Source: an uncultured Mageeibacillus sp.
GTDB taxonomy: Bacteria; Bacillota; Clostridia; Saccharofermentanales; DTU023
Direction of reading: 5' to 3'
NCBI GenBank assembly: GCA_964606165.1
Contig: CAZSFQ010000001.1
Span: 74,278 to 138,277 of the forward strand
Length of the DNA stretch: 64,000 bases
The position numbers and the translations under genes were made by a program. Within the stretch, counting starts at the first letter, position 1. Each line of letters starts with the position of its first letter. The notes under the pieces were generated by a model that worked only from the letters and a program-made list of their open reading frames with translations, was not told the origin of the DNA and ran no database searches. Below are positions 2,788 to 25,131 of the stretch, piece after piece.

Positions 2788-2853
2788 AAACGCTGAATAG
2801 CCTTGATATAAGTGCGTCTACGAGCAAATATGTGATGGAAAGGAGATACTGAA

Positions 2854-4146
2854 ATGGACGTTATAAAAATCCCAGTTAAGCTGCCGGAAAGCATAGAAAA
2901 AGAAAAGGTTGCGGCTTATGCCAGAGTTTCGACCAAGAGCGACGCTCAGCTTCATTCACTGGATGCTCAGATTGATTATTACAGGAAAAGGATCAATGCA
3001 CGTGCTGACTGGAGTTTTGTCGGTGTCTTTGTTGATGATGGTCTCACGGGCACAAGAAGTGATCGCCCAGGACTCGAAGACCTTTTGGATCATTGTCGTA
3101 GAAAAAAGATTGACTTTGTCCTGACCAAATCGATCTCACGCTTTGCCCGAAACACTGTCGACCTTCTGGCCATAATCAGGGAACTAAAAGAACTTGGCAT
3201 TGCTGTATTTTTCGAGCGGGAGAAAATCAACACTCTGACTGCCGACGGAGAACTGATGCTAACGCTCCTTGCATCCTTTGCCCAAGAGGAAAGCCGTTCC
3301 ATGAGTCTTAATAAACGATGGAGCATTCATAGGCAGTTTTCTGAAGGTGAGCTGGCAGGCATGGCTCATCTCTATGGCTATGATGTTGTCGATGGAGAGC
3401 TGATCGTAAACGAGCATGAAGCAGAGATTGTCCACATGATGTACGAGGATTATCTAAGCGGTATGCAAAGCTCGGAAATCGCAGAAAAACTTAATCGCAT
3501 GGGTGAACCCAGAAAGCGTGGTGGTAAATGGAAACCGAGAGACATCACAAATGTCTTCAGAAACGAAAAACATACCGGGAACGCCCTGCTGAATAAGCGA
3601 TATGTGCTTGACCCTATAACGAAGCAAACAAAATACAACCATGGTGAACAGCCTCAATACTATATTGAGAATTCCCATGAAGGCATTGTTTCACAGGAAC
3701 TTTTCGATGCCGTACAGGAAGAAATGAAGCGCAGAAGCCCTAACAAGGAAGCACCAAAACCTCATAACAAACCATTCACGGGCATGATCTACTGTGCCTG
3801 TGGAGCGAAGTTCCAACGTAAGAAGTCACCTGTTCGGGTGTTTTGGCGCTGTGGAAGAAATCTTGGCTCATACGGTGGTCACTGTTCCATGAAAGGCATC
3901 CCCGAAGAAACCCTCGAGTCGCTTTGCTGCGATGTTCTTGGAATATCTGAATTTGATGCAAATACCTTTAGAGAATGCGTAGAGCGGATCAATATCACAG
4001 GAGACAACGAACTGACCTTCCTTTTGAAAGACGGAAGGGAGATTCAAAAAACATGGAAGGACCGCTCACGCTCAGAGTCATGGACACCAAAAATGAGAGC
4101 AGAGGTCAGTCGCAAGAATAGAGAGAGGGCAAAACATGGCAAATAA
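2854..4146 (+). CDS. Large serine recombinase 1
   Basis: AAYARVST catalytic-Ser motif, DDGLTGT, TKSISRFARNT, FAQEESRSMS, a recombinase domain and a Zn-ribbon (CACG...WRC); AAGGAG RBS. Confidence 0.92.
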   Translation: MDVIKIPVKLPESIEKEKVAAYARVSTKSDAQLHSLDAQIDYYRKRINARADWSFVGVFVDDGLTGTRSDRPGLEDLLDHCRRKKIDFVLTKSISRFARNTVDLLAIIRELKELGIAVFFEREKINTLTADGELMLTLLASFAQEESRSMSLNKRWSIHRQFSEGELAGMAHLYGYDVVDGELIVNEHEAEIVHMMYEDYLSGMQSSEIAEKLNRMGEPRKRGGKWKPRDITNVFRNEKHTGNALLNKRYVLDPITKQTKYNHGEQPQYYIENSHEGIVSQELFDAVQEEMKRRSPNKEAPKPHNKPFTGMIYCACGAKFQRKKSPVRVFWRCGRNLGSYGGHCSMKGIPEETLESLCCDVLGISEFDANTFRECVERINITGDNELTFLLKDGREIQKTWKDRSRSESWTPKMRAEVSRKNRERAKHGK

Positions 4147-5869: not shown

Positions 5870-6043
5870 TCGTCGAGTAAATTCAAACAAACCACTCGAA
5901 ACAAAAGTGTTTCGTACCGCTAGTATACGAAAAATCGGCACAAGCAGAAAAGAACAAAATCCCAGGCTCCAAGCTGCCGCTTTGCACCGTTTCGTTAATT
6001 TCTCTGATTAAGAAAAAGCCTTGAATATCAGGTGTTTTCGAGC

Positions 6044-6081
6044 AAAAAAATACTCCGCTACGATTGTATCCGTAACGGAGT
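6044..6081 (-). terminator. Intrinsic terminator downstream of tRNA-Cys
   Basis: Minus strand reads ACTCCGTTACG-loop-CGTAGCGGAGT followed by ATTTTTTT. Confidence 0.7.
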
Positions 6082-6088
6082 CCTTTTA

Positions 6089-6163
<75 letters not shown>

Positions 6164-6167
6164 CTAT

Positions 6168-6195
6168 AAAAAGACCGGCGTTTGTCCGCCGGTCT
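6168..6195 (-). terminator. Terminator-like hairpin between tRNA-Gly and tRNA-Cys
   Basis: Minus strand AGACCGGCG-GACAAA-CGCCGGTCT followed by TTTTAT. Confidence 0.5.
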
Positions 6196-6199
6196 CGTC

Positions 6200-6274
6200 T
6201 GGAGCGGGATACGAGATTCGAACTCGCGACTTTCACCTTGGCAAGGTGACACTCTACCACTGAGTTAATCCCGC
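6200..6274 (-). tRNA. tRNA-Gly(GCC)
   Basis: GCGGGATTAACTCAGTGGTAGAGTGTCACCTTGCCAAGGTGA...GTTCGAATCTCGTATCCCGCTCCA. Confidence 0.96.
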
Positions 6275-6319
6275 AAGACAGCGGCATGCGCCGGATCTGG
6301 TTGCCCCTGGCGCCTTGCC

Positions 6320-6349
6320 ATCTTAGCAAAGGGCCTCAAAGATTGTCAA
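6320..6349 (-). promoter_or_regulatory. Sigma-A promoter for tRNA-Gly/Cys
   Basis: TTGACA-18 bp-TAAGAT with an extended -10 TG, ~45 nt upstream of tRNA-Gly. Confidence 0.7.
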
Positions 6350-6362
6350 CCAAATCCTAGCG

Positions 6363-6438
6363 TGGTGGGACCTGCCGGGCTTGAACCGACGACCTCCTGC
6401 GTGTGAAGCAGGCGCTCTCCCTGCTGAGCTAAGGTCCC
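6363..6438 (-). tRNA. tRNA-Val(CAC)
   Basis: GGGACCTTAGCTCAGCAGGGAGAGCGCCTGCTTCACACGCAGG...GGTTCAAGCCCGGCAGGTCCCACCA; anticodon CAC. Confidence 0.95.
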
Positions 6439-6439
6439 A

Positions 6440-6514
6440 TGGTGACCCGAACGGGAATCGAACCCGTGTCTTCGCCGTGAAAGGGCGATGTCTTAACCCC
6501 TTGACCAGCGGGCC
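6440..6514 (-). tRNA. tRNA-Glu(TTC)
   Basis: GGCCCGCTGGTCAAGGGGTTAAGACATCGCCCTTTCACGGCGA...GGTTCGATTCCCGTTCGGGTCACCA. Confidence 0.96.
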
Positions 6515-6518
6515 GTGC

Positions 6519-6595
6519 TGGTGGCGGCAACAGGATTTGAACCTGTGACACTTCGGGTATGAACCGAATGCTCTGGCCAACTGAGCTATACCGCC
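6519..6595 (-). tRNA. tRNA-Met(CAT), elongator type
   Basis: GGCGGTATAGCTCAGTTGGCCAGAGCATTCGGTTCATACCCGAA...GGTTCAAATCCTGTTGCCGCCACCA; G1 start and the GGTTCATACCC arm typical of Firmicutes elongator Met. Confidence 0.92.
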
Positions 6596-6621
6596 GTTTG
6601 CCTTCCAGCGCAACACACTGA

Positions 6622-6651
6622 ATGATATCAGTGTCATTTCGCTTTTGTCAA
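6622..6651 (-). promoter_or_regulatory. Sigma-A promoter for tRNA-Met/Glu/Val
   Basis: TTGACA-18 bp-TATCAT with an extended -10 TG. Confidence 0.72.
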
Positions 6652-6652
6652 A

Positions 6653-7705
6653 TCAAAAATGTTCTGAGAATGCCCCGTCCCGGAACTCATTATACAGGTC
6701 ACAGGTGAGGTCCAGCAGGGGCGCCAGATAAAGAGCGCTCCCCTCCGCTGAACCCGGCGTCCCGTCGTCAATGACAGGCATCATTCCCAGCTCCCTTTGC
6801 GCCAGTTCGCCGCCCGGATCGCTTGCCTGATGCGCGGCGAAAAAAAGCGGACACGTCTCAGGGATAAGCCTGACCAGTGTCAGCGCGGCAGTCAGGGAGA
6901 CCGCGCTGCCGGTCAGAACCGGGATTCCATAAAGGGCCGCTCCCGCAAAAAAACCTGTCATGGCGGCCAGCTCCAGACTTCCCAGTTTCTTTAACACATC
7001 CAGGGTGTTGTGCCTGTTAGCCTCTCTTTGAATGACGGCCGCGCTCAGAACATAAGCCCGGCGGTCAAATAGTTGGCCGGCCTGCCGGGGATCCCTCGCC
7101 ATCAGGTCTTCCGGCTTGCGGTCAAAAAAGACCGCCAGCATGGCTGTCGCGGCAAGTTTGCCGCCTTCGGCCACGCCGTCGGCGGCAAGAAGGGTCATGC
7201 CCTGGTCACGGGCCTGTGAAGCCAGTTCCATGCCGGCCCGGATGGCCGTCATCATGGCCTCTTCTGTCAGGGCATCTTCCCGGACCATGTTGCGGGATCC
7301 CTCCGCCATGACCGGCACATGGACGACCCCCTCAACCGGACCGAGCCCCCGGGTCCCCATATTGACGGTAACAAGCCGGGTCCCGGTCAAGCGGGCCAGC
7401 CTGTTGGCCGGATGTTCGCCCCGCGCCAGCTGCCGGACGGATTCAGCCGTTGATCCATGGCCTGAAGAAAGGCCGCCCTCCTCCATCAACCCGCAGTCCG
7501 ACGCGAAAAGAAAGAGGGCGCGCCGCTTGACATCGAAAGGATCAGGGCTGATCCAGCCGGCCAGGCGGGCGTGGAGAGCCGCCAGGAGACTTGCCCTGCC
7601 CGTCTGGCTGTCCCATCGCCCGGAAACCTCCCCTATTCTGCCCGGGTCAGCATCCGTCCGCCCGGACAGTTCCAAAAAGAAGTCGGCTCTCGTATAGGCT
7701 TTCAT
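6653..7705 (-). CDS. CobT-family (nicotinate-nucleotide:base phosphoribosyltransferase) fold protein with degenerate motifs
   Basis: Overall CobT layout (FASDCG for FAADHG, NMG, GSRNMVREDALT, KLGSLELAAMTGFFAGAA, AHQASDPGG), but the KP.GSLG.LE, GEMGIGNTT, DGF and MRLGEGTG motifs are altered. Confidence 0.7.
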   Translation of the reverse strand: MKAYTRADFFLELSGRTDADPGRIGEVSGRWDSQTGRASLLAALHARLAGWISPDPFDVKRRALFLFASDCGLMEEGGLSSGHGSTAESVRQLARGEHPANRLARLTGTRLVTVNMGTRGLGPVEGVVHVPVMAEGSRNMVREDALTEEAMMTAIRAGMELASQARDQGMTLLAADGVAEGGKLAATAMLAVFFDRKPEDLMARDPRQAGQLFDRRAYVLSAAVIQREANRHNTLDVLKKLGSLELAAMTGFFAGAALYGIPVLTGSAVSLTAALTLVRLIPETCPLFFAAHQASDPGGELAQRELGMMPVIDDGTPGSAEGSALYLAPLLDLTCDLYNEFRDGAFSEHF

Positions 7706-7712
7706 AGCCTGG

Positions 7713-8621
7713 CTATTTCAGGAGCCCTGTCAGGGCCGCCGCGATCAGGGCAATCCCAAGCAGGATCCGGTAGAAGGCGAAAATCCGAAAGTCGTGGCGC
7801 CGGATGTAGCTGAGCAGGAAACGGATGATCATAATAGAGACAAGGTAGGCCACCCCCATGCCTACCAGGATGGAAAGCCATTGGATCAGGTTAAAATTCA
7901 GGCCGATCTTGAGAACTTTAAGGAGGCTGGCGCCCAGCATGACAGGAACTGCCAGGAAAAAAGTAAAGGTGGCGGCGACAGGCCGGGACATGCCGATCAG
8001 GAGCCCGCCAACGATGGTGGCGCCGGAACGGGACGTGCCCGGCAGGATGGCGGCAATCAGCTGAAAAAGGCCAATGAGGAGGGCCGCCTTCCAGTCAATC
8101 TGGCTGGTGGACTGAATGGAGGGCTTGCGGTATTTCCAGCGGATATAGAACTCAATCACCAGAAAAGCCAGGCCGACCACGATCAGCATGACGGCCACAG
8201 TCCACGGATTGTAGAAAATGGCTTCGATTGTGTCGTCAAAGAGGACACCGATCACAGCAGCGGGTACGCAGGCGACCAGGATCATCACCCACAGTCTCAG
8301 GATCTTGTGATCGACTGCCAGAGGGAAGGCTCCTTGATTGGACAGCTGCCTCTCATTTGCCGGATCAAGGGCATCTTTTCGCCGTGGAAAAGGCCACAGC
8401 TGTTGCCAGAAAGTGACAACCACGGCCATGACCGCCCCCAATTGGATGACAACAAGGAAAAAGGAAAAGAAGAGCCGGTTGCTGATGGCGTCCCCCCCCG
8501 CTGTAAAGGGGACGAAACGTTCCAGAATCAGCAGATGCCCCGTACTGCTGATGGGCAGCCACTCTGTTATTCCCTCAACAATTCCGTACAAAACACTTTT
8601 CAAGATATCAAGCCATGCCAT
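7713..8621 (-). CDS. uppP: Undecaprenyl-diphosphate phosphatase (BacA/UppP)
   Basis: GIVEGITEWLPISSTGH, IQLGAV and PGTSRSGATI motifs; multipass membrane protein. Confidence 0.95.
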   Translation of the reverse strand: MAWLDILKSVLYGIVEGITEWLPISSTGHLLILERFVPFTAGGDAISNRLFFSFFLVVIQLGAVMAVVVTFWQQLWPFPRRKDALDPANERQLSNQGAFPLAVDHKILRLWVMILVACVPAAVIGVLFDDTIEAIFYNPWTVAVMLIVVGLAFLVIEFYIRWKYRKPSIQSTSQIDWKAALLIGLFQLIAAILPGTSRSGATIVGGLLIGMSRPVAATFTFFLAVPVMLGASLLKVLKIGLNFNLIQWLSILVGMGVAYLVSIMIIRFLLSYIRRHDFRIFAFYRILLGIALIAAALTGLLK

Positions 8622-8633
8622 TATCTTATCCCC

Positions 8634-11600
8634 TCATTTTCCTTGCCTTAAGACCAGGACGCCACCCGGTAAAAGCGTAAACTCATCGCGTTTGCGCTCC
8701 CAACTGCCCTCGCTGATGGTGTTGCCTCGATGATCGTACAGCGCAAATCTCGTTTCTTGCTGATCCAGCCCCTGAATTGATACGACATGGGCCGACCGGT
8801 CCAGATTCAAGGCGAAAACAAGGATCGAGTCACGCGAACCAAAGGCATAAAATAACACACGGCGCTGGCTGTCGAGCTCCGCTTCCTGTTCCAAATCCTC
8901 CGTTTGATCCTTGGCAGCCTGGCTGCTCCGGACCAGGGCAGGTTCCTCCAAAAGTTGCAGGCCCGATAAGCCCCGGACGGCATTGAGCGCGTGTCCTGTC
9001 AAATGCTTGTCCGTCAAAGAACTGCGGTCCGCGTAATTGATGTCCATAAGGGCAAGCACTGTATTATTGCCCAGATCGGCAAGAACAACACCCACAGCGT
9101 CGACCAGACGGACCGGCTCATGGTCATAGTCAATTTCGACCGAACGGATCAGTTCAGGAACCAGGACCCCGCCTGACATGCCGCGCCTGGGGATGCTGTT
9201 GATCCAATCATTAAGGATTTCTTCAAGCGTCTCTTCCGAATCAAGCGGCTGGCCGAGCCGGAGATCACCGGCATGGTAATCGGCAGTCGTGTGGCTCCGG
9301 CCGTCATCGTACTGCATGGAGTCAATGAAGAAGACCTGATTTCTGATGCCCTGAAAGTCAGGCGCGGCCTTGATCTGATCCATGAGCCAATGAACGTAGT
9401 TGGCGCGGGAGGCGTCGTTGGGAAGAATCCCTCCCCCATCGGTCAGCTCGATATAAATCAGGCTGAAAGTGTCGGTCCAGCGTCCGATGGCGCCGTCGCG
9501 CGACCTGAGCTTGCCGTAAGTGGACAGGGGTGATCCCGCCAGGTACTCGACCAGGTGGGCCAGCTCCGCGGGTGTCGCGTGAAGGTCGACCACCAGCCAG
9601 GGCGAGGCTCCCTGTGTTTCCACATACTGCAAGGCCGTCCCCAGATTGTGGGCGCGGGTGTCATTACCCCCGGCGCTCCCCGTCCCCTCGGGCAGGGACC
9701 AGAATTCTTCCCCGTATCCCTGGCGTCCGATCGGCACGCTGTCGAGCCTGATCACATCAGCGCGGGCAGACTTTTCCTCTGTCAGGAAATCCGACAAGGC
9801 TCCTGGCGTGTCATCGTTTCTCCCAAACCAGATATTGTCCAGGTGAAGGGTTCCGGATCCGGCAAATCCAAAATTGATCCAAAGCTCATCATCCAGTTTC
9901 AGGCCGCGCGGGAACAAGAGCGTAAAGCGCCGGTGCTGCCACGCTTCACCCTGGATCCTGACCGATTCACCCACCGTGGGAAGGGAGCCTGCAAACCACA
10001 CTTCGATGGGACCATCAATTTGGCCTGTGACCCGGACGTCAAATTCAAGCCGGTAAAAAGGCAGGGTATCACTGACGACAAGCCGCGACAGGTCAAGTTT
10101 TTGTGTCAGCCTGGCGTCCAGATAGGGCCTGTCAGGGTTGTTGACCGGGGTCATGGAGGAAATACCCTGACGCACGGAAAACAAGACTTCTTTTGACGGC
10201 GGTTCGTCTTGATCCTCCTGGCCGGCCGATGGATCCGTCCCTGTTTTTTCAATAGAAAGGGCACCGGAGCCTCCGGAATCATAGCCTTCCTTCCCTTCAC
10301 GGGCATCGTCAGAGGTCACAAATGAAGCGCCGCCTGACAGGGCCCATTCACCGGCGGGCAGGGCTTCCTCACGCAGGACATAGCTTATTTCCTGTGTATT
10401 GAGCTCCGGTGATTCGGAGAGACGGATGGTCATTAAGTCACCCGCGGCGACGCTGCCGCCTTCCAGGGCCGGCTCAAAACGAAACTGAGCGGTCAGTTCT
10501 GCCTGGATCATGGTCCCATCGCGTTTGGCCAGGAAGATATCGCCGGAGGGGAAAAGGGCGAACCGCTCAAGCCTGCTTTCATCAAAGGGGTTCTCGAGGT
10601 TCCAGGACTTACCGCCGTCTTTGGAATAAAGCAGCCGGCCATCAGCCGCCAGAACGACAAATTTGTCCGATGACATGACCATGATCTCCGTCAGGTCCGT
10701 CAACTCAATCAGGTTTTCTTCCGGTTCAAGGAAACGCACTACTCCCTTGTCCGGCCTGACCGCCATCTTCCCTCCCGCGCCGGCAAAAAGGGTAATCCCT
10801 CCCCCGGCTTTGGCGGCCAGCCAGGCTCCGTTGGATTGCAGGGATTCCTCGATTTGCCACTCGATTCCATTTGAGGAAGAGGCGACATTGCCCTGGTTCC
10901 CCAGGGCGTAAAGGATCCCGTCACCAGCTTTAACCAAGGACGTGACCTGATCGTCGAGTGGGAATGACAGCAGCTCCATGCCCCACGGATGACCGAAAAA
11001 GAGTTCACCCGGCCCGCCCGAGGCCAGGAAGAAACCATTCTCGTAATCGGGCAGATCCATGTACTCGATGGACCGGACCGCGTAACCGGGAGAGGCCTGG
11101 GTGATCAGGTTCCAATTGGTCCCGTCCGGTGACGCGTACAATTTCCCGTCTGAATCACCTGCGAGCAGGCCACCTGGTCCGGCGGCAATGGCAGTCAGAT
11201 CGACGCTGAAGCGGAAGGCCATCTGTTCGGGCGCCGCGTCGCGCGGCAACTTGACGAGGGCTCCCCCCGTCCCGCACGCGTAAACGGTTCCGCCGGCTTC
11301 GGCAAAGTCGCTCCAGCGCGGGTTCGCGGTCTCCAAGGGGATTGAAAGTTCCCGCTTGCCCGATACGATGCCCGCCTCATAACCGGTAATCCTGCCCGAG
11401 TTGATCAGGGTCATCTCGGACAGCGATTCGCGAAAAAGAGAAAAAGCAGCGCCAGCGTAATAGTCTTTTGCCAAGGGAACCTGCGAACGCGCCTCCGTCA
11501 TCTTGATGCGAAGTTCATCCGCCTTGCCGTCATTGGCAAAATAGTGAGCGTGGTGTGTAAGGGGCGAGAAGGACCCGCCGGTGACGAGATTGGTCGAGGG

Positions 11601-11831
11601 CAGGCCGGTCAAATTGATGCCGGTGCCGGTCAGGACAAGCTGGCTGGCCGCTTTATCGCTTACACGGACATGAGACGCCGGCCGGCTCCCCAAAATCCCC
11701 GCCGCCTGCCAGACAATGGAAAGCACGACCACAGCGATGACCAGCAAGACGACCGCAGTGGTCAGGACGGTCCTCCGTCTCAGGCTTCTTGGAATCAATC
11801 GGAAACGTGCCACCTCAAACCGCCGCCTCAT
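8634..11831 (-). CDS. ~1065-aa membrane-anchored surface protein: beta-propeller (BNR/YCF48-like) + carbohydrate-binding-like domain + GH51-like barrel lacking the GNE motif
   Basis: RBS before ATG 11831; basic N-terminus plus one TM helix; BNR boxes (YASPDGTNW, SSNGIEW, YSKDGGKSW); GSGTLHLDNIWFG; VEYLAGSPLSTYGKLRSRDG...WTDTFSLIYIELTDG resembles GH51 alpha-L-arabinofuranosidase-like barrels. Confidence 0.65.
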   Translation of the reverse strand: MRRRFEVARFRLIPRSLRRRTVLTTAVVLLVIAVVVLSIVWQAAGILGSRPASHVRVSDKAASQLVLTGTGINLTGLPSTNLVTGGSFSPLTHHAHYFANDGKADELRIKMTEARSQVPLAKDYYAGAAFSLFRESLSEMTLINSGRITGYEAGIVSGKRELSIPLETANPRWSDFAEAGGTVYACGTGGALVKLPRDAAPEQMAFRFSVDLTAIAAGPGGLLAGDSDGKLYASPDGTNWNLITQASPGYAVRSIEYMDLPDYENGFFLASGGPGELFFGHPWGMELLSFPLDDQVTSLVKAGDGILYALGNQGNVASSSNGIEWQIEESLQSNGAWLAAKAGGGITLFAGAGGKMAVRPDKGVVRFLEPEENLIELTDLTEIMVMSSDKFVVLAADGRLLYSKDGGKSWNLENPFDESRLERFALFPSGDIFLAKRDGTMIQAELTAQFRFEPALEGGSVAAGDLMTIRLSESPELNTQEISYVLREEALPAGEWALSGGASFVTSDDAREGKEGYDSGGSGALSIEKTGTDPSAGQEDQDEPPSKEVLFSVRQGISSMTPVNNPDRPYLDARLTQKLDLSRLVVSDTLPFYRLEFDVRVTGQIDGPIEVWFAGSLPTVGESVRIQGEAWQHRRFTLLFPRGLKLDDELWINFGFAGSGTLHLDNIWFGRNDDTPGALSDFLTEEKSARADVIRLDSVPIGRQGYGEEFWSLPEGTGSAGGNDTRAHNLGTALQYVETQGASPWLVVDLHATPAELAHLVEYLAGSPLSTYGKLRSRDGAIGRWTDTFSLIYIELTDGGGILPNDASRANYVHWLMDQIKAAPDFQGIRNQVFFIDSMQYDDGRSHTTADYHAGDLRLGQPLDSEETLEEILNDWINSIPRRGMSGGVLVPELIRSVEIDYDHEPVRLVDAVGVVLADLGNNTVLALMDINYADRSSLTDKHLTGHALNAVRGLSGLQLLEEPALVRSSQAAKDQTEDLEQEAELDSQRRVLFYAFGSRDSILVFALNLDRSAHVVSIQGLDQQETRFALYDHRGNTISEGSWERKRDEFTLLPGGVLVLRQGK

Positions 11832-12765
11832 CCCTCTTCCTGCTTGTCTTTCGCAGGACCAGCATGCCGGCAAGGCCGATCAGCACGAAGGCATAGAGTA
11901 CGTAGACAATGATTTCTTCCGCCCGCTCCCCTGCTCCCGTCAAGCGGACAAGCCAGCCGGAGCCAATGAAATTGAAGATGGCGTGCATGGCGATCGGGAT
12001 CGCGATATTGCGGGTCAGATGATAGGCCATGGTCAAGGCAAAGCCGGCAATCAGGACATAGGAGCCCTGGATCAGATCAAGGTGGAAGAGGGCAAATAGA
12101 AGGGTCGTCCCCACTACGGAAACGGAAGCCGGAAAAGCCTTGCGCAATTCTCCCTGGACGATGCCCCGGAAAAGAAGCTCTTCACCGACCGGGACCAGGA
12201 GTACCGTCGCGATGAAATCGAGGGCGGACACCGAGGACGCGGCGTCAAACAGGACCATCTTTTCCATGTAGTCCGCAAAGAGACGGCCCAGGGCCGATGC
12301 CGGATCGAACGAGGCCAGGATGGCCATCCACAGCTGGGTCAGACCCAGGGCCCCCAGGATAAGGGCAACCGAGCTCAGGGATTGGACCCAGGTCACGCGC
12401 TCAAAGGGAACGGACAGGTCCAGTCTCTTTCTGCGCCGGTACAAATAGAAAGTATATACGGGAATCAGGATGACCATGCCGAGCAGCGAAGCGTAGATCA
12501 TGGCACCGCTTTCGACCAGGATCCGCAGCATAACCGCGCTGTCGGCCGCGCTTTCTCGGAGTTCGGCCTGAAGCGACGGGTTGGAATAAAGATAGGAGAA
12601 AGTGCGGGCAAGGGAAATGCCGTTCAGGACGGCGTGATGCAGCAGCATAAAAAGTAAGGGCGCGAGAAAGGTTCGGGCCGTGACCCGCCTGCCGCCGGCT
12701 GGCGGCAACATACCAACCGCAGGTTCCTGTGTGCTGTGTACGTATTGTTCTGTGTTTTGCACCAT
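11815..12765 (-). CDS. CPBP/CAAX-family intramembrane glutamic endopeptidase
   Basis: PVGEELLFRG, LFALFH and IAMHAIFN motifs; multiple TM helices. Confidence 0.9.
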   Translation of the reverse strand: MVQNTEQYVHSTQEPAVGMLPPAGGRRVTARTFLAPLLFMLLHHAVLNGISLARTFSYLYSNPSLQAELRESAADSAVMLRILVESGAMIYASLLGMVILIPVYTFYLYRRRKRLDLSVPFERVTWVQSLSSVALILGALGLTQLWMAILASFDPASALGRLFADYMEKMVLFDAASSVSALDFIATVLLVPVGEELLFRGIVQGELRKAFPASVSVVGTTLLFALFHLDLIQGSYVLIAGFALTMAYHLTRNIAIPIAMHAIFNFIGSGWLVRLTGAGERAEEIIVYVLYAFVLIGLAGMLVLRKTSRKRDEAAV

Positions 12766-12811
12766 GGCAGGCTGGCTCCATCCACAAGCCCGGCTATAGG
12801 AAGCGGGTCAG

Positions 12812-13162
12812 CTAGGGGCGGGCGATCGAGCCGGTATACCGTTCAAAAAAATACTCAAAGGCGCGATCAAGTTCTTTCCTGCTTGTGACGGAAGAAAAGA
12901 CGTGCTCACCGTTTTCATCCTTCCACGAACGCATGATGACGACTTCGGGGCTGGCCCTTTTGCCGTCATCCGGTTCGTAATTATACATAACGGTGTAGGT
13001 CTGCCCCCCGATCGAAAAGGAGTCCAGGAGCGACACATAATACTCGCGGCCGCTCCGCTCATCCACAATGATGGCAAGAACGCCGTCCCCCGCGCTCCTC
13101 CGGTCACTTTCCCGAAGCGGGCGTTCGCGCGGCTGTTTACGCTTCCGGGAAGTCTCCGTCAT
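12812..13162 (-). CDS. DUF1292-like protein with basic N-terminal tail
   Basis: IIVDERSGREYYVSLLDSFSIGGQTYTVM...VVIMR...GEHVFSSV...ELDRAFEYF matches the DUF1292 pattern. Confidence 0.6.
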   Translation of the reverse strand: MTETSRKRKQPRERPLRESDRRSAGDGVLAIIVDERSGREYYVSLLDSFSIGGQTYTVMYNYEPDDGKRASPEVVIMRSWKDENGEHVFSSVTSRKELDRAFEYFFERYTGSIARP

Positions 13163-13499
13163 CTTCGCACTCTTCCAGCAGGGCCTGGTAGGCCTGGTAG
13201 ACAGCTTCGTCCTCGTCGTCCTCGAGACCTACGAGGACTTCCTCCCCGTCATCCCCGGCCACAAACTTCATGAAGAACAAGCTCATCTCGTCTTCGTCGC
13301 CTTCGGATGGATCGACCAGGACACAATATTCCTCCCCTTCATGGGAAAAGGTATCCGCCATGATGAAAGAGTAGTCTTCTCCTGTTTCTGTATCGGTCAA
13401 AACGACATAGGCGTCCTCGTCAAAAAGCTCATCGACACCTTCTTCACAACAACAGTCATGCTCATCTTCCGACATGTAGAGTACCTGTAATTTCTTCAT
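13137..13499 (-). CDS. DUF1292 (YrzB/UPF0473-like) acidic protein
   Basis: VVLTDTETGEDYSFIMADTFSHEGEEYCVL...LVGLEDDEDEAVY; located after ruvX as usual; alternative start at 13475. Confidence 0.8.
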   Translation of the reverse strand: MKKLQVLYMSEDEHDCCCEEGVDELFDEDAYVVLTDTETGEDYSFIMADTFSHEGEEYCVLVDPSEGDEDEMSLFFMKFVAGDDGEEVLVGLEDDEDEAVYQAYQALLEECEDDGDFPEA

Positions 13500-17651: not shown

Positions 17652-19013
17652 ATGAGAATGAACTTGCTTGGTTTGTCCCGGGCCATCCATCCGAAAGACA
17701 ACAAGAACACAGTCGGAATGGCGATTAAACCGCTTTCCGGCTTTTCAAAAGTAACCATCCCGCTTAACATGCAGATCGGCCCCGGATGCGAGGCCATTGT
17801 CGCCAAAGGTGATCACGTCGACGTCGGGCAGCCCTTGGGCAAGCCGACCGGGGCCTGGAGTGTCCCGGTCCACGCCAGCGTTTCCGGCCAGGTCGCCTCC
17901 ATCAGCGATGAGATCTGGAGTGATGGCAGCCTGGCCAAATACGTCACCATTATCCCTGACGGCCTGGATACCGTCAGCCCCGGGGTCAAGCCTCCTGTCG
18001 TCACCGACAAGGAGAGTTTCCTTGCCGCGGTACGTGACTCTGGCCTGGTCGGCCTTGGCGGCGCGGCCTTTCCCGCCCATGTCAAGCTCAACCCCCCGGC
18101 CGACAAGCCGGTCGACACACTGATTGTCAACGCGGCTGAGTGTGAGCCCTATATCACTGCTGATTGCGCCGTCTGCTGCAACAATGCCGGCGAGGTGGTT
18201 GATGGGGCCCTGGCTGCTGCCAAATGGTGCGGCTTTGACCAGGTGATTTTCGGTATTGAAGACAACAAGAAGGACGGCGCAAAAGCCTTGCGGGAAGCCA
18301 TCGACAGGAAAAAGGATGACCCCGACTGGCCCAAGGGCGGCATGGTCCTCAAAGTACTGAAAACTGCCTACCCGACCGGAGCCGAGAAAGTTCTGATACA
18401 CCTGCTGAACGGCAGGGTAGTTCCCGAGGGAGGCCTGCCCTGCGACGTCGGTGTAATCGTCCATAACGTCTCAACACTCCATTTTCTGGCCCGCTACCTG
18501 AAAACCGGCATGCCGCTTATAAAAAAGGTCATTACCGTGGACGGCAGCGCCGTCGCGGAACCCGGCAACTTTGAAGTTCCCATCGGTGCCATGATTGAAG
18601 AAGTCATCGAGAAGGCGGGCGGAACCAAGACAGCGCCCGGGAAAATCATCATGGGGGGACCCATGATGGGTATCGCCGTCGACGAACTCACGCGGCCCAT
18701 CGTCAAGCATAACAACGCCATCCTCATCTTTGACGAGAAAGATGCTATCCTGCCGGAAGAATCGGCCTGCATCCTATGCGGACGCTGCATCCGGGCCTGC
18801 CCCATGAAGCTGATGCCCATGGCGCTCGACAAGGCCGCCCGCGCGCTCAGCGTGAATGAGCTGAACGAACGCCATGTCCTGACTTGCATTGAGTGCGGAA
18901 GCTGCTCCTACGTCTGTCCCGCCAAACGCTATCTTGTCCAGAACATCCGCAACGGGAAGGCCCTGGTGCAAGCTGCCGCGGCGGCTTCGACCGAAAAAGG
19001 AGGGAAATCGTAA
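17652..19013 (+). CDS. rnfC: Rnf complex subunit C
   Basis: VHASVSG, GLVGLGGAAFP, NAAECEPY, YPTGAEK, MGGPMMG and two 4Fe-4S motifs (CILCGRC, CIECGSCSYVCP). Confidence 0.95.
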   Translation: MRMNLLGLSRAIHPKDNKNTVGMAIKPLSGFSKVTIPLNMQIGPGCEAIVAKGDHVDVGQPLGKPTGAWSVPVHASVSGQVASISDEIWSDGSLAKYVTIIPDGLDTVSPGVKPPVVTDKESFLAAVRDSGLVGLGGAAFPAHVKLNPPADKPVDTLIVNAAECEPYITADCAVCCNNAGEVVDGALAAAKWCGFDQVIFGIEDNKKDGAKALREAIDRKKDDPDWPKGGMVLKVLKTAYPTGAEKVLIHLLNGRVVPEGGLPCDVGVIVHNVSTLHFLARYLKTGMPLIKKVITVDGSAVAEPGNFEVPIGAMIEEVIEKAGGTKTAPGKIIMGGPMMGIAVDELTRPIVKHNNAILIFDEKDAILPEESACILCGRCIRACPMKLMPMALDKAARALSVNELNERHVLTCIECGSCSYVCPAKRYLVQNIRNGKALVQAAAAASTEKGGKS

Positions 19014-19933
19014 TGCTTCATGTCTCCGCTTCACCGCATATACGCGACCGCGTCACCACGCGTTCCGTCATGCTGCATGTCATCATCGCCCTGGTGCCGG
19101 TGATCGTCGCTTCCTTCTTCATCTTCGGACTGGCCGGACCCATGCTCTTCGTCATCAGCGCGGCGGCCTCAGTCGGCTTTGAGGCGCTCTCGCGCGTCAT
19201 CATGAAACGGGAACAAACCGCCGGCGACCTGTCGGCCCTTGTGACGGGCCTGCTCCTGGCCGCCAGCCTCCCTGCCAACACGCCCCTTTGGGTCCTGATT
19301 ACCGGTAACTTTGTGGCCATCGTCGTCGTCAAGCAGATGTTCGGAGGCCTGGGCGATAACTTCGCCAACCCGGCCGTTACGGCCCGGATCGTCCTCTTCG
19401 TCTCCTTTACCAACCAGGTGGCTACCTTCTCTGTCGCAGAAAAATTGCCCGGCATCGACCTGGTCACCCAGGCCACGCCCTTGTCCGGCGCCGCGGCACC
19501 CTCCTTCCTGGATCTTTTCCTGGGCAACCACGCGGGCTGCATCGGTGAGACATCCATCGCCGCCTTGCTGGTTGGAGGTATCTTTCTTCTGGTAACCGGG
19601 ATTATCGATATCTGGGCGCCGCTGACCTTTATCGGCACGACCGTCCTCTTTACCTGGGCGACCGGCGCCGACCCGCTCCTGCACCTGATGTCCGGCGCGC
19701 TGATCCTGGCCGCTTTCTTCATGGTGACCGACTATGTAACAACGCCGACGACCCTGGTGGGGAAAATCATTTTCGGGGTGGGGGCAGGTCTTCTGACCGG
19801 CCTCATGCGGATCTACAGCCCCATGCCGGAAGGCGTTTCATTCGCCATTCTCTTCATGAATATCCTGACGCCGCATATCGAGCGCTGGACTGCGCCAACG
19901 GCTCTCGGAGGTGTTAAACATGCCAAAAAATAA
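19013..19933 (+). CDS. rnfD: Rnf complex subunit D
   Basis: SASPHI, DLSALVTGLL, KQMFGGLGDNFANPA, flavinylation site DLVTQATPL, GCIGETS and TDYVTTP. Confidence 0.95.
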   Translation: MLHVSASPHIRDRVTTRSVMLHVIIALVPVIVASFFIFGLAGPMLFVISAAASVGFEALSRVIMKREQTAGDLSALVTGLLLAASLPANTPLWVLITGNFVAIVVVKQMFGGLGDNFANPAVTARIVLFVSFTNQVATFSVAEKLPGIDLVTQATPLSGAAAPSFLDLFLGNHAGCIGETSIAALLVGGIFLLVTGIIDIWAPLTFIGTTVLFTWATGADPLLHLMSGALILAAFFMVTDYVTTPTTLVGKIIFGVGAGLLTGLMRIYSPMPEGVSFAILFMNILTPHIERWTAPTALGGVKHAKK

Positions 19934-21464
19934 GAAACAAGCAAACGGGAAGACTCCTGTCATCGAACGGGGGCCCATGCCCGTTTTGATCCTGGTCATT
20001 ATCTGCACCGTTTGCGTCGCGCTCCTGGCACTTACAGCCACCATGACAGCGGACGCCATCGAGGCCCAAAAACTGGAAGCGGCCAACGCGGGCAAGAAAG
20101 CCCTATTCCCTGACGCGGTCCAGTTCCCGGAGGAAAGTCTGGCCCAACTGGTCGCCGCCATCCCCGGTGCGTCCATGATTGATCTCAATGCTTCCGAGTT
20201 TTCCGACGTCAAGGCCGTCACCCGGGCAGTTGATCGTGAGGGAAAAACGATCGGCCTTATCATCGAAGTGGCCAGCTCCGGCTACAAGGGACCCGTACCG
20301 GTCATGGCCGGTATCGACATGGCGGGGAGAATCTCGGGCATCGTAGTCGACGCTTCCGGTGAGACGGCAGGCGTCGGATCCCCCGTAGGTGAAAGTTCCT
20401 TCACCGACCAGTTCATCGGTTTGGCAACCGACGACACCTTTGCCGGGATCGATATGGTCAGCGGCGGAACCATTTCATCGGGTTCTGTCATCAAGTCGGT
20501 CAAGCTCGTCTCCTCGGTCTTCAATGCCATTTTGGGCTTTGAGGGCGCGGATGATGGCGGAGCCACCAGGGAAGACTTCTTCCCTGATGCAGTCGATTTC
20601 CCGGTTGAGAGCCTGGAAGAGGCCGTCGGTCAGATCCCGGGAGCTGTCCTAGTGGATCTGACGGCCGAAGACTATGACGGTTTCCGGAGCCTGACCCGGG
20701 CGGTGGACGCCGATGGCAAGACAATCGGCCTTCTGATCGAGGTCGCCAAGAACGGCTACCACGGACCGGTTCCGGCTGAGGTGGCCTTCGACCTGTCCGG
20801 CCAGATCCTCGGCCTGATCGTGGACGCCTCTGAAGAAACCTTCGGAGTCGGTCAGCCGGTTGGTGAGAAAGAATACACCGACCAGTTTGTCGGCAGGCCC
20901 GCGGACGATTCATTCGAGGATGTGGACATCATCAGCGATGCCACCATCTCCTCCAATTCGGTCATCCGCTCGGTCAAGCTGGCTTCAAAGATTTTCAGTG
21001 ACCTGATGACCGGCCAGGCTGAAGAACCAGCCGAAGAAGTGAGCGAGCTCCAGGTCCTCTTCCCGGACGCGGAAGAAGAGCTTGTGGAAGCCGAAATTGA
21101 CGGGATGGAAGCCCCGGAAGGCACAGGCATCAAGTTCGCCCTGGGAGAGACCAGCGGCGACAGGGCCGGCCTGATCGTCCGGGTCACGGGTGAGGGCCGC
21201 AACGGCCCCCTGCCGGTCACGGTCGGCCTTGATCTTTCCGGCCGCATCACCGGACTTCTGGTCGACGCTTCCGGCGAAACACCCGATATCGGCCAGCCGG
21301 TCGGAGAAAAAGACTTCACGGATCAATTCATCGGACGCCAGGTGGACGAACTCTTCGATGACATCGACGCAGTCAGCAGCGCCACCATTTCATCCAATGC
21401 CGTCGTCCAGGCAATTCAGGCAGCCTCGGCAGTCTATGGATCCTTCCAGGAAGGAGGCCACTAA
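19920..21464 (+). CDS. rnfG: Rnf complex subunit G with three tandem FMN-binding domains
   Basis: Position between rnfD and rnfE; one TM anchor; three repeats each containing FPDA, GYxGP-like, ET.G.G, FTDQF and D.(V/I)S..TISS. Confidence 0.9.
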   Translation: MPKNKKQANGKTPVIERGPMPVLILVIICTVCVALLALTATMTADAIEAQKLEAANAGKKALFPDAVQFPEESLAQLVAAIPGASMIDLNASEFSDVKAVTRAVDREGKTIGLIIEVASSGYKGPVPVMAGIDMAGRISGIVVDASGETAGVGSPVGESSFTDQFIGLATDDTFAGIDMVSGGTISSGSVIKSVKLVSSVFNAILGFEGADDGGATREDFFPDAVDFPVESLEEAVGQIPGAVLVDLTAEDYDGFRSLTRAVDADGKTIGLLIEVAKNGYHGPVPAEVAFDLSGQILGLIVDASEETFGVGQPVGEKEYTDQFVGRPADDSFEDVDIISDATISSNSVIRSVKLASKIFSDLMTGQAEEPAEEVSELQVLFPDAEEELVEAEIDGMEAPEGTGIKFALGETSGDRAGLIVRVTGEGRNGPLPVTVGLDLSGRITGLLVDASGETPDIGQPVGEKDFTDQFIGRQVDELFDDIDAVSSATISSNAVVQAIQAASAVYGSFQEGGH

Positions 21465-22291
21465 TGGCAACAAAACGATCAGCCGGCTATGAGCTTACCA
21501 AGGGTGTCTTTAAAGAAAACCCCCTGCTCATCCTCATGCTGGGAACCTGCCCCGCCCTCGCCGTCACGACGACGGCCTACAACGGGCTGGGGATGGGAAT
21601 CGCGTCGACAGCGGTCCTCCTCCTATCCAATGTGGTCATCTCCCTGCTTCGCAAAGTCATTCCCGACAAGGTCAGGATCCCCGCCTATATCACCATCATC
21701 GCGAGCCTGGTCACCATCCTGCACCTTTTGCTCCAGGCCTACCTGCCAGGCTTGAACGAGGCCCTGGGGATCTTCATTCCCCTGATTACCGTCAACTGCA
21801 TCATCCTGGGCCGGGCTGAGGCCTTCGCCAATAACCACGGCATCCTGGTCTCCGCCCTTGACGGCCTGGGCATGGGGGCGGGCTTTACCCTGGCTCTTCT
21901 GGCTATCGGCGGTCTTCGCGAAGTACTGGGAGCGGGCACCTTCTTTGGCCTGGCCATGCCCTGGATCCAGGAAGGCGGCCTGCAGCCCATGATGATCTTC
22001 GCCCTCCCCGCTGGCGGCTTTGCCATCTACGGGATCATGGTGGCCGTCACAGAGAAAATTAATAAGCGTTTTTACGCCCAGCGTCCCCAGCGGACCATGA
22101 CCCGTGACCGCTACCCCGGCAGCATCAGCGAGCGTACCGACGCCGTCTATGATGTGACGGAGGTTCTGGACGGCCCGCGCCGCTCCAAGACACCGGCACT
22201 TGATGCCGTTCCTCCTGCGGTCAAGGAGCCTGGCGCTTTCGCCGCGAAAGATGAAGCGCCCAAGCAAGCGGTTGAAAGTGAGGAGAACTAA
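21464..22291 (+). CDS. rnfE: Rnf complex subunit E (with C-terminal extension)
   Basis: ENPLLILMLGTCPALAVT, VRIP.YI, IPLITVNCIILGRAE and LPAGGF. Confidence 0.95.
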   Translation: MATKRSAGYELTKGVFKENPLLILMLGTCPALAVTTTAYNGLGMGIASTAVLLLSNVVISLLRKVIPDKVRIPAYITIIASLVTILHLLLQAYLPGLNEALGIFIPLITVNCIILGRAEAFANNHGILVSALDGLGMGAGFTLALLAIGGLREVLGAGTFFGLAMPWIQEGGLQPMMIFALPAGGFAIYGIMVAVTEKINKRFYAQRPQRTMTRDRYPGSISERTDAVYDVTEVLDGPRRSKTPALDAVPPAVKEPGAFAAKDEAPKQAVESEEN

Positions 22292-22881
22292 TGAAAGAAT
22301 TTTTCGTAATTTTATTCAGCGTTATCCTGATCGATAACCTTGTCCTTTCGCGGTTCCTGGGCGTCTGTTCCTTCCTGGGACTGACCAAAAGCGTCAAGAA
22401 CGCGATGGGGATGAGCGTCGCGGTGATTTTCGTCATGCTGGTCGCGACAGCGGTCACCTACCCCATCTACTGGAATCTCCTCGACCCGGTGGGCCTGGGC
22501 TATCTTCAGACCGTCGTCTTTATCCTGGTGATCGCCTCAGTCGTCCAGGTTCTGGAGGCTGTTATCCGCAAGGCCTTCCCGCCCCTTTACCGGGCCATGG
22601 GAATCTACCTGCCCCTCATCACGACCAACTGCGCCATTCTGGGTGTCATGCTGATCAATATCCAGGAAACCTACGGATTCCTGGCTGCCATGATGTCCTC
22701 TCTGGGCGCGGGCGTCGGTTACATGCTGGCCATGTTCCTGTTCGCGGGCGTCAGGGCGAAAATGGAAAAAGCCGATATTCCGTCCTTTATGGAGGGTCTT
22801 CCCTCCACCTTGATGGCAGCAGCAATCGTCTCTGTCTCCTTCATGGGATTCAAAGGCGTGATTGAGAACCTGTTCGGATAG
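22291..22881 (+). CDS. rnfA: Rnf complex subunit A
   Basis: [16 protein letters not shown] and [15 protein letters not shown]. Confidence 0.95.
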
Positions 22882-22904
22882 GCCGGCATGATCGGAGGAA
22901 TTTG

Positions 22905-23747
22905 ATGATCTTATCACTCTTGACAAACCCAATCTTCCTGCCGGCCCTTGTCGGCGCGGGAGTTTCACTTCTGGCGGGCGTCGTTATCCTGCTCGTCTTC
23001 CGCTTCTTCCACGTGGAGACCAACCCTCTTCAGAAGCTGGTGGAGGATGTCCTGCCTGGCATTAACTGCGGCGGGTGCGGATACAGCGGCTGCGCCGCCT
23101 ACGCGGCAGCCCTGGCGGACGGCTCTGAGCCCCTGACCACGCTTTGCACCGCGGGCGGACAGGACACGGCCACGGCCGTTGCCGAGGTCATGGGCGTTGA
23201 GGCCGGCACCGTCATCCCAATGGTCGCCAATGTCTTTTGCCAGGGAACGACCAAGAATACCCACAAGCGCTACGAGTACACCGGACCCCAGCACTGCGCG
23301 GAAGCGGCGGGACTTTTCTCGGGACCCAACTCCTGTACCTTTGGCTGCCTGGGGTTCGGGGACTGCGTCGCCGTTTGCGAATTCAACGCGCTCTACCTGG
23401 AAAACGGCATCGCCCATGTCAACCACGATAACTGTACGGCCTGCGGCAAATGTGTTGATGCCTGCCCCAAGCACATCATCCACATGATCCCCAAGCATGA
23501 GCTGGCCACCAACGTGACCTGCTCCAATCACTGGCCGCCCAAGGTTGTGAGAAAGGCCTGCACGGTCGGCTGCATTGCCTGTGGACGCTGTGTACGCGTT
23601 TGCCCCGTCGATGCCATCGTCATTGAAGACAACCTGGCCGTAATCGACCAGCTCAAGTGCATCCACTGCGGCAAATGCATTGAAGTCTGCCCGACAAACG
23701 CCATCCGTGAAGGATTGCTGGGCGGACCGGGGGAGTCCAGCGCCTAG
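22905..23747 (+). CDS. rnfB: Rnf complex subunit B (polyferredoxin)
   Basis: [25 protein letters not shown] and several CxxCxxCxxxCP motifs; GGAGG RBS before ATG 22905. Confidence 0.95.
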
Positions 23748-23787
23748 AAACCATAGGAAACGAAGAGAAAACCTCACGGGGCAGTGC

Positions 23788-25131
23788 ATGCAGATGTTGG
23801 ATCCAAATGGCAATAGACAAGCAGGGAAACAAGATCATCTGCCCCGGGGGTCCGCTCTCCTGAAATCCGACACCCGGATCGTCCATTTATTTTTCCTGGT
23901 CTTTTCGCTCTTCTTCCTGCTCGCTGCCCCTTTCGCGGGCCCTGTCGATCAGCTTATACCCGGTTTTCTGAAGATACTCACCAGCCCGCAGATACTGACT
24001 ACCGACGCCTGCGCCCTGGGCGGACTCAACGGAGCCCTGCTCAATGCGGGTCTTCTCGGGCTCCTGTCCTGGGCGCTCATGAAGTTTTCAGGGGATCCAG
24101 CGACCGGCGCGTCTTTTTCTGCCTTTTTTCTCACCCTGGGTTACGCCTTTTTCGGACAGAACTGCCTGAATGTGCTCCCCCTGATCCTGGGCACCTGGCT
24201 TTTCTCCAAGATTAAAAGGCAGCCCTTTCGCAATTACGTCAATATGTCGCTTTTCGCCTGCTCCCTGGCCCCCCTGGTCAGCGAGGTCCTCTTTCCCCGC
24301 TACCACGACTATTCCCTCCTGATCGGCATCCCCCTGGCCCTCCTTCTTGGCCTGCTGGTGGGCTTCATCTTCCCTCCCCTTGCCGCTCACACGGCTGGCA
24401 TGCATAAGGGGCACAGTCTTTTCAACGCGGGCCTGACTGCCGGTCTTTTGGGCCTGATTCTTTTCGCCGTCTACAAAACATTGGTCCTGGCACCTCTGGA
24501 TCTAGTGTCCGGCTATCAACTGAACAGTGTCCTGTCCCCAGGCTACCCACTTTTCTTTCCCCTCTTCCTGGCCTCCTTGTTTGCCGCGACCCTGCTGGCG
24601 GGAATCCTTCTGAATGGCAGATCTTTCAGGGGATACGGGAATCTTCTCAGGCAAAGCGGTTACAAGTGCGACTTTCTGGCCCGGGAGGGGGCAGCCAGAG
24701 TTTTTATTAATTTCGGGCTTCTGGGCCTCATGGCCCTCCTCTATATGATTGTGGTCAAAGCGCCCTTTACCGGCCCCACAGTGACCTCCATCCTCTGCCT
24801 GGCCTGCTTGTCGGCCACGGGCAGTCACCTGATCAATGTCCTCCCCATCATGGCCGGTTACGCCCTGGTTTCGATCGCGGCCGTGTGGACCCTGGGAGCC
24901 CAGGCCATTGTCGTTGGTGTCTGTTTTGCCACCTGCCTCTCACCCATCAGCGGCCGGGGCGGCTGGTTTTGGGGACTGGCGGCCGGCGCCCTGCACGCGG
25001 GCCTGGTCACTTACATGCCCGCCTTGCACGGAGGCTTCAACCTCTACAACGGCGGATTCACGGCGGGTCTGGCAGCCATAATCCTTGTCCCCCTTCTGGA
25101 GTATTACAAAAAGACACCGGTCCCTGAATGA
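23788..25131 (+). CDS. DUF1576-family multipass membrane protein (start uncertain)
   Basis: ILTTDACALGGLNGALLNAG, FACSLAP, HKGHSLFNAGLTAG and HGGFNLYNGGF internal repeat pattern recalled for DUF1576. Confidence 0.75.
   Translation: MQMLDPNGNRQAGKQDHLPRGSALLKSDTRIVHLFFLVFSLFFLLAAPFAGPVDQLIPGFLKILTSPQILTTDACALGGLNGALLNAGLLGLLSWALMKFSGDPATGASFSAFFLTLGYAFFGQNCLNVLPLILGTWLFSKIKRQPFRNYVNMSLFACSLAPLVSEVLFPRYHDYSLLIGIPLALLLGLLVGFIFPPLAAHTAGMHKGHSLFNAGLTAGLLGLILFAVYKTLVLAPLDLVSGYQLNSVLSPGYPLFFPLFLASLFAATLLAGILLNGRSFRGYGNLLRQSGYKCDFLAREGAARVFINFGLLGLMALLYMIVVKAPFTGPTVTSILCLACLSATGSHLINVLPIMAGYALVSIAAVWTLGAQAIVVGVCFATCLSPISGRGGWFWGLAAGALHAGLVTYMPALHGGFNLYNGGFTAGLAAIILVPLLEYYKKTPVPE

Follow-up and report, generated by a model that had tools for sequence, protein, structure and literature searches.

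How an ion pump could make use of several flavins on its outer face is the question raised by a 64,000-nucleotide (nt) stretch of DNA from an uncultured Mageeibacillus sp. (contig CAZSFQ010000001.1; the whole stretch is called the window here), in which the rnfG gene of an rnf operon encodes three tandem flavin mononucleotide (FMN)-binding ectodomains on a single membrane anchor. Canonical RnfG is a protein of ~190–210 amino acids (aa), with 189 aa in 7zc6_G, 207 aa in 9eri_G and 210 aa in P0042, from a sister lineage; this agrees with the norm of ~200 aa and one FMN from which a first-pass annotation, made from the sequence alone, had set out. The subunit is a mobile shuttle whose exposed FMN swings between the iron-sulfur centre of RnfA/E and the flavin of RnfD. 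Multi-flavin RnfG as a kind, together with the mechanistic idea attached to it, has been known since 2021, when Méheust et al. (eLife, PMC8238504) reported 2081 multi-FMN proteins in 1530 genomes, among them multi-flavinylated RnfGs in RNF clusters, and proposed that these provide a second path to extracytosolic acceptors. In the literature searched we found no multi-flavin RnfG that had been characterised biochemically, and the terms 'multi-flavinylated' and 'multiple FMN' are absent from a 2025 review of RNF and NQR.

We find that the window gene encodes the RnfG subunit of an otherwise ordinary RnfCDGEAB ferredoxin:nicotinamide adenine dinucleotide (NAD+) ion pump, whose host is a member of the Saccharofermentanales (Clostridia) living in anaerobic digesters and wastewater. 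With more than one FMN_bind domain behind one N-terminal helix, it falls within the multi-flavinylated extracytosolic proteins as delimited by Méheust et al. in 2021, and rnfB (22902–23747), three genes downstream of rnfG, places the locus among their RNF clusters, which are recognised by the presence of RnfB.

Architecture of RnfG within the rnf operon

The operon is complete, runs in the order C-D-G-E-A-B over 17652–23747 (+ strand), and has all six of its subunits called by Pfam and NCBIfam models:

17652–19013, + strand: rnfC, 453 aa, the NAD(H)-side subunit (Pfam RnfC_N, Complex1_51K, SLBB and Fer4; TIGR01945, 427 bits)
19013–19933, + strand: rnfD, 306 aa (PF03116, 331 bits; match to TIGR01946)
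19920–21464, + strand: rnfG, 514 aa, with three tandem ectodomains
21464–22291, + strand: rnfE, 275 aa (PF02508, 212 bits; match to TIGR01948)
22291–22881, + strand: rnfA, 196 aa (PF02508, 174 bits; match to TIGR01943)
22902–23747, + strand: rnfB, 281 aa, the ferredoxin-side polyferredoxin subunit (Pfam FeS and several Fer4; NCBIfam RnfB models)

Lying between rnfD and rnfE, rnfG shares 14 nt with the end of rnfD, and its stop codon has one base in common with the start of rnfE. Its open reading frame spans 19911–21464 (+ strand) when counted from a GTG codon; the ATG at 19920, which gives 514 aa, is the likely start because a GGAGG lies 8 nt upstream and every orthologue begins MPKNK. The N-terminus is basic, and a hydropathy scan detects a single hydrophobic helix at ~aa 20–42. 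The protein is made up as follows:

19977–20105, + strand: membrane anchor helix (aa 20–42) and linker helix (aa 43–62), placed by hydropathy, modelled as a single continuous helix (aa 20–62) by AlphaFold (AF2) and aligning with the N-terminal helix of 7zc6_G and 9eri_G
20106–20534, + strand: domain 1 (D1), aa 63–205, motif DMVSGGT at 20451–20471, acceptor Thr184 at 20469–20471
20580–21011, + strand: domain 2 (D2), aa 221–364, motif DIISDAT at 20925–20945, acceptor Thr342 at 20943–20945
21060–21461, + strand: domain 3 (D3), aa 381–514, motif DAVSSAT at 21366–21386, acceptor Thr489 at 21384–21386

The repeats open with LFPDA (20103), FFPDA (20577) and LFPDA (21057), and each flavinylation motif is followed by ISS. 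Pfam FMN_bind matches the protein in three separate stretches (133 bits; cut-off 22), the best of which falls in D3 (aa 426–502), and the rnfG model TIGR01947 also matches in three (155.4 bits against a cut-off of 102), with its best stretch, aa 23–202, covering profile positions 2–186 of 187. The layout described in the first-pass annotation, 514 aa with one transmembrane anchor and three ~145-aa repeats, is borne out by this analysis; its repeat starts are exact, its three flavin domains each return as an FMN_bind stretch, and its motif sequences with the trailing ISS stand as read, although the motif positions it gave (20460, 20934 and 21375) mark the Ser codon, 9 nt into each motif.

An in-house RnfG profile, made from five RnfGs of the clade that have one domain each, matches the protein three times, with 250, 143 and 99 bits. 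The first match spans the full profile including the helix, and the second and third span positions 60/61–207, the whole ectodomain. This coverage indicates that the duplicated unit is the whole RnfG ectodomain, more than the 77-residue Pfam core. D1 adjoins the anchor and linker helix without a break, spaced as in canonical RnfG and in single-domain relatives; the linkers between domains are acidic and ~15 residues long, and the ectodomain as a whole is very acidic (isoelectric point ~4.05; 82 Asp/Glu against 28 Lys/Arg).

Sequence matches in the PDB lead to RnfG from each part of the protein: the helix and D1 match 7zc6_G and 9eri_G, D2 matches CbFMN4-D1 (8p2b_A) and 7zc6_G (E ~4e-4), and D3 matches residues 67–188 of 7zc6_G. 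The full-length AF2 model has a mean predicted local distance difference test (pLDDT) score of 77.8 and repeats one pattern three times, namely four strands, short helices and a long C-terminal helix; D2 is its most confident part, with block means of pLDDT mostly 85–94. Foldseek searches of the PDB with this model place RnfG (9eri_G, 7zc6_G, 8rb8_G) on top and NqrC next, with E values of 2e-9 to 1e-6 for RnfG and NqrC taken together. RnfG again comes first for a model of D2 and D3 alone (pLDDT 81), with a root mean square deviation of 3.0 Å from 7zc6_G over 146 columns. With the canonical RnfG/NqrC subunits of C. tetanomorphum (7ZC6 G), A. woodii (9ERI G) and A. vinelandii (8AHX G) the window protein shares operon position, N-terminal and linker helix, fold and the place of the acceptor Thr. 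It differs from them in carrying three ectodomains in 514 aa, as against 187–237 aa, and in having SGGT, SDAT and SSAT where they have [ST]GAT.

Integrity and ancestry of the threefold repeat

We entertained the possibility that the repeat is an assembly artefact or a decaying duplication, in which case it would not represent one expressed gene. A single contig points that way. In run X2, a low-depth contig (4.9 against ~45 for the main strain) passes from 19740 in rnfD straight to 21514 in rnfE and omits all of rnfG; it has just 25 letters on its shorter side, and may be a chimeric k-mer path or come from a related strain. Set against it, the three repeats share only 43–54% amino-acid and at most 65% nucleotide identity, and over 19000–23800 the window is matched collinearly, with 2 differences, by an 18.9-kb contig of an independent run. 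The three-domain gene recurs in metagenomes of bioreactors, wastewater and digesters, in at least 20 runs drawn from no fewer than 8 studies. Orthologues at 99, 88 and 82% identity have the same three-domain layout, as do three loci from other assemblies or metagenome-assembled genomes (MAGs), and the nearest genome records are digester MAGs labelled Saccharofermentanales and 'Clostridiaceae bacterium'. Given the DNA divergence, the independent contigs and the orthologues, assembly duplication was rejected, as the first-pass annotation had already argued from the divergence of the repeats, and we consider an artefact or decaying copy extremely improbable.

The reading frame of rnfG is intact. 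Comparison with the 82%-identical orthologue gave ratios of non-synonymous to synonymous substitution rates (dN/dS) of 0.09 for D1, 0.11 for D2 and 0.31 for D3, values that place all three domains under purifying selection. With sites that look intact, fold matches and low dN/dS, they are unlike decaying copies. In two metatranscriptome runs, contigs cover parts of rnfG, which is modest evidence that the gene is transcribed.

We next turn to where the additional domains came from. Identity to the single domain of P0042 is 59% for D1, 54% for D2 and 48% for D3, and none of the three exceeds 38% identity to any domain of P0005, a multi-domain RnfG of another lineage. In the tree, D1, D2 and P0042 group at 98% bootstrap with the order among them open, and D3 joins them in just 47% of replicates; the domains of P0005 tend to group with each other. 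The tandem amplification of the whole extracytosolic FMN domain thus arose inside this narrow lineage, apparently independently of that in P0005. A domain-by-domain orthology with P0005, hinted at by a first alignment, was dropped because neither the identity matrix, with its low values, nor the bootstrap, with the P0005 domains together, bears it out. A clean triplication postdating the divergence of the P0042 lineage is a candidate only: with the open order of D1, D2 and P0042 and the 47% for D3, the amplification may have preceded or followed that divergence. The single-domain RnfGs P0042 and P0063 are found in identical synteny (MatE, rnfCDGEAB, L28, ArsR-ATPase), and the syntenic one-domain sister (P0042, L012) and the three-domain lineage together form a natural comparison, which is new here.

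A search of 1.84 billion representatives with the helix and D1 returned 3443 matches at E ≤ 0.001. Among the best 150 of these, 145 have at least two matched stretches, and up to 13, a proportion that is not a frequency because summed scores favour multi-domain proteins. From the multi-domain proteins we sampled seven with a predicted N-terminal membrane helix:

Window clade: in the rnf operon, three domains
P0005: in the rnf operon, at least 4 domains
P0048: in the rnf operon, 4 domains
P0049: in the rnf operon, 4 domains
P0011: directly upstream of rnfCDEAB, 4 domains
P0009: with ApbE only
P0044: with ApbE and an iron ABC transporter

Like the window protein, P0005, P0048, P0049 and P0011 are encoded in or directly beside rnf operons, and they are at most 38% identical to its domains. 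P0049 and P0011 have canonical-type motifs only, and P0005 and P0048 have deviant motifs in some domains. The first-pass annotation had allowed that multi-domain RnfG might already be a described common variant; in part this is so, through Méheust et al. 2021 and the further independent examples sampled here. Another locus, L002, is arranged differently and brings together at 5966–13421, in this order, apbE, a four-domain FMN_bind protein gene, rnfC, rnfD, rnfE, rnfA, rnfB and a flavin adenine dinucleotide (FAD) synthetase gene; there is no rnfG between its rnfD and rnfE, and a multi-domain RnfG, a flavin transferase and a flavin-cofactor enzyme are encoded in one cluster.

Flavin sites and the proposed role of the additional domains

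In the crystal structure of CbFMN4-D1 the flavin is contacted by the Thr of an 'ET' loop, the acceptor Thr and the Ser at +2 (PMC10339131). Alignment to this structure shows that these residues are kept in all three domains of the window protein (T149/T184/S186 in D1, T307/T342/S344 in D2 and T454/T489/S491 in D3), and they are invariant in the orthologues (82–99% identity). Each acceptor Thr is located in the first turn of the long C-terminal helix, like Thr164 of C. tetanomorphum RnfG, and each of the three motifs retains this Thr together with the Ser at −3 and the leading Asp. We judge from these features that all three Thr (184, 342 and 489) probably carry covalent FMN, attached by the organism's ApbE.

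Tandem flavin domains of this kind have precedents. Co-expression with ApbE yielded SaFMN3 with 3 and CbFMN4 with 4 covalent FMN, which is full occupancy (Tong et al. 2023, PMC10339131; PDB 8P2A, 8P2B). They are tandem FMN_bind proteins like the window RnfG, whose D2 aligns with CbFMN4-D1 including the flavin contacts, but their domains are FMN_bind cores of ~85–90 aa, as opposed to full RnfG ectodomains of ~145 aa, and their genes are flanked by putative ApbE genes, with a link to rnf unmentioned in PMC10339131. The FMN-bind2 domains of Huang et al. 2024 (~160 aa) have beta-sheet insertions and pair into two-flavin units, usually in even numbers; the window protein has an odd number (three) of ~145-aa domains for which AF2 shows no confident contacts, and its unit is the RnfG ectodomain. 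The multi-flavinylated RnfGs of Méheust et al. belong to the same architecture class and have the same proposed role. The window protein is distinguished from them by the lack of a multi-haem domain, which their Christensenellales examples have, by its non-canonical motifs and by its syntenic single-domain sister. Listeria PplA and the Rnf-associated multihaem MmcA of Methanosarcina offer analogies from the literature as outer-face, multi-cofactor carriers that lead from a membrane complex to outside acceptors; PplA, which serves flavin-based extracellular electron transfer, is however a lipoprotein fed by Ndh2 and quinone and does not belong to a pump, and MmcA uses haems; the comparison made here covers the shared FMN_bind domain.

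The explanation that we favour as a whole, with evenly balanced confidence, is an RnfG with three flavin domains in which D1 is canonical and D2 and D3 are tethered carriers forming a side branch or buffer. D1, which has the canonical anchor spacing and is the most conserved copy, would act as the normal RnfG shuttle, moving to and fro between the iron-sulfur centre of RnfA/E and the flavin of RnfD. D2 and D3 would take electrons from the exposed D1 flavin by collision and give the pump a side branch or buffer on its outer face, through which ferredoxin-derived electrons could reach soluble or wall-associated acceptors. That the branch leads to outside acceptors by way of D2 and D3, as Méheust et al. 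proposed, we advance only tentatively. Its furthest extension, in which Rnf doubles as an outlet for ferredoxin electrons (RnfB to RnfA/E to a three-flavin chain, and from there to soluble flavins, humics, Fe(III) or a syntrophic partner), seems to us improbable.

A number of observations weigh against this explanation. The strict pattern Dxx[ST]GA[ST] fits none of the three motifs, as the first-pass annotation had recognised (SGGT, SDAT and SSAT), owing to a Gly at −1 in D1, an Asp at −2 in D2 and a Ser at −2 in D3. In a rough count of ~520 motifs from 185 FMN_bind proteins, a Gly at −1 is rare (~1%); a residue other than Gly at −2 occurs in about a fifth. A tblastn search of the 64-kb window with two ApbE proteins returned nothing (best E 0.057), although this is expected for a 64-kb sample. 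Neither the operon nor the window contains genes for an acceptor, a reductase, a cytochrome or a second FMN_bind protein, and by our estimate three domains of ~4 nm cannot alone span a Gram-positive wall. A single domain suffices in the syntenic sister lineage, so Rnf itself can do without the others. Finally, the AF2 models have no confident packing between domains (predicted template modelling score (pTM) 0.49 for the full-length protein and 0.59 for D2 and D3) and low-confidence linkers, so that flavin-to-flavin distances and a 'wire' are unsupported. Huang et al. 2024 described the AlphaFold models of multi-FMN proteins as beads on a string, and well-folded domains on loose linkers have that appearance here too. 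The best-supported picture from the models would be one of tethered flavin carriers that exchange electrons by collision, and not of a rigid wire. Of the functional reading in the first-pass annotation, the identity of the protein as a three-flavin-domain RnfG holds, an ordered flavin wire is unsupported, and for the external route it envisaged neither the operon nor the 64-kb window supplies an acceptor, a reductase or an ApbE.

The departures in the motifs lend themselves to a different account, in which flavinylation is partial: D2 and D3 would be flavin-free spacers or binding modules, or D1 would have lost its flavin and a distal domain would shuttle in its place. All three motifs deviate, the Gly at −1 makes the SGGT of D1 the site whose use is least certain, D3 evolves about three times faster than D1 and D2, and a strongly degenerate AEVT occurs in domain 2 of the independent four-domain RnfG P0005. 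Against this account, neither the 'ET' loop nor the acceptor Thr or the Ser at +2 varies among the orthologues in any of the three domains, and dN/dS is well below 1 in each. Single-domain RnfGs of the clade depend on equally non-canonical motifs, SAAT in P0042 and SSST in P0063, each the sole site in the same syntenic operon, and the RnfDs of the clade have Q, K, T or S at −2. As single-domain relatives and RnfD vary likewise, we take the deviations to be characteristic of this lineage and do not read them as decay. Three domains of the four-domain RnfG P0048, also from an rnf operon, have [ST]GGT. The motif of D3 varies at −2 between strains, since P0001 (99% identical) has a canonical SGAT there, with Gly at the position of Ser487 (21378–21380). 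ApbE itself partly tolerates substitutions, for in published mutagenesis G to A and A to V changes still allowed ~50% flavinylation, and we infer that the ApbE of this lineage is tolerant of motif variants. Partial flavinylation is in our view unlikely.

A further alternative is a relay or buffer that works inside the complex and has no external acceptor. The added domains would then provide more local shuttles, simultaneous docking at RnfA/E and RnfD, or electron storage, and would tune turnover or reversibility. RnfG has to move between sites that lie 29 Å and 8 Å from the RnfAE centre, a movement thought to be limiting and costly in energy; the operon has no accompanying acceptor genes, all three domains are conserved, and amplification of RnfG recurs in complete rnfCDGEAB operons without added partner genes. 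On the other hand, only D1 has the canonical tether geometry, the number of copies varies by lineage (3 here, 4 in four others sampled), which is a poor fit to a two-site mechanism, and a structural model of such an arrangement is lacking. We regard a purely internal relay as rather doubtful and retain the three-flavin-domain RnfG with tethered carriers as our preferred explanation.

Gene neighbourhood and implications

The remaining subunits of the operon show features of their own. The flavinylation motif of RnfD is DLVTQATPL, with Gln at −2, and the RnfDs of relatives (L001, L002, L004 and L007–L009) have K, T or S at −2 with a constant Ala at −1; the RnfD site of these Clostridia therefore also departs from the textbook [ST]GA[ST]. 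RnfE (275 aa) consists of an Rnf-Nqr domain to ~aa 192 followed by a hydrophilic, charged C-terminal tail of ~75 residues, and with RnfE of 271–276 aa in L012, L018 and L019 such a tail is typical of the clade. A promoter and terminator scan gave counts no better than chance.

Outside the operon, the window contains the following features:

23788–25131, + strand: DUF1576 membrane protein, 447 aa, two DUF1576 repeats (274 bits), 40 nt after rnfB
28622–50138, − strand: arginine/ornithine gene region, with two alanine-racemase-like genes, a MutL-like gene, ornithine/lysine aminomutase, carbamate kinase, ornithine carbamoyltransferase, arginine deiminase and at least one V-type ATPase subunit
72–5734, + strand: putative edge of a prophage or integrative element, with a gene for a family-A DNA polymerase and, after it, two large serine recombinases side by side
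8634–11873, − strand: open reading frame of 1079 aa with an N-terminal hydrophobic helix and nothing in Pfam at E ≤ 1e-5

A DUF1576 gene follows rnfB only in the three-domain clade (the window, L004 and L019); the single-domain relatives L012 and L018 are without it and have the L28 gene directly after rnfB. More distant DUF1576 proteins adjoin formate dehydrogenase (L021) or the Wood-Ljungdahl genes FTHFS, FolD and ACS (L022), neighbours that hint at a role in one-carbon or formate metabolism. On the basis of these neighbours elsewhere, the DUF1576 gene was rejected as a general partner of the flavin chain; our literature search found no paper that mentions the family. The arginine deiminase pathway, the aminomutase and the V-type ATPase genes suggest an arginine/ornithine (amino-acid) fermenter in which ion gradients are coupled through Rnf and V-ATPase. 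The stretch at 72–5734 has a G+C fraction of 0.45, against ~0.58 elsewhere, and probably marks the border of such an element.

What this locus adds to the multi-flavin RnfGs already described is a one- versus three-domain pair in identical synteny, together with informative motif variants. The lineage is a convenient test case, as it has a one-domain syntenic sister and its three domains are diverged enough to be discriminated by mass spectrometry. The SGGT, SDAT and SSAT variants probe the sequence tolerance of ApbE, which is also a protein-labelling tool.

Should the additional flavins prove redox-active, Rnf would in some anaerobes go beyond the closed ferredoxin:NAD+ loop and form a branch point able to vent low-potential electrons to the outside, with a bearing on the redox balance, the hydrogen yield and the passage of electrons between species in digesters. 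Were Rnf to serve as such an outlet, it would constitute extracellular electron transfer without cytochromes or quinones, fed directly by the pump, for which the single-domain sister (P0042, L012) would be the natural control.

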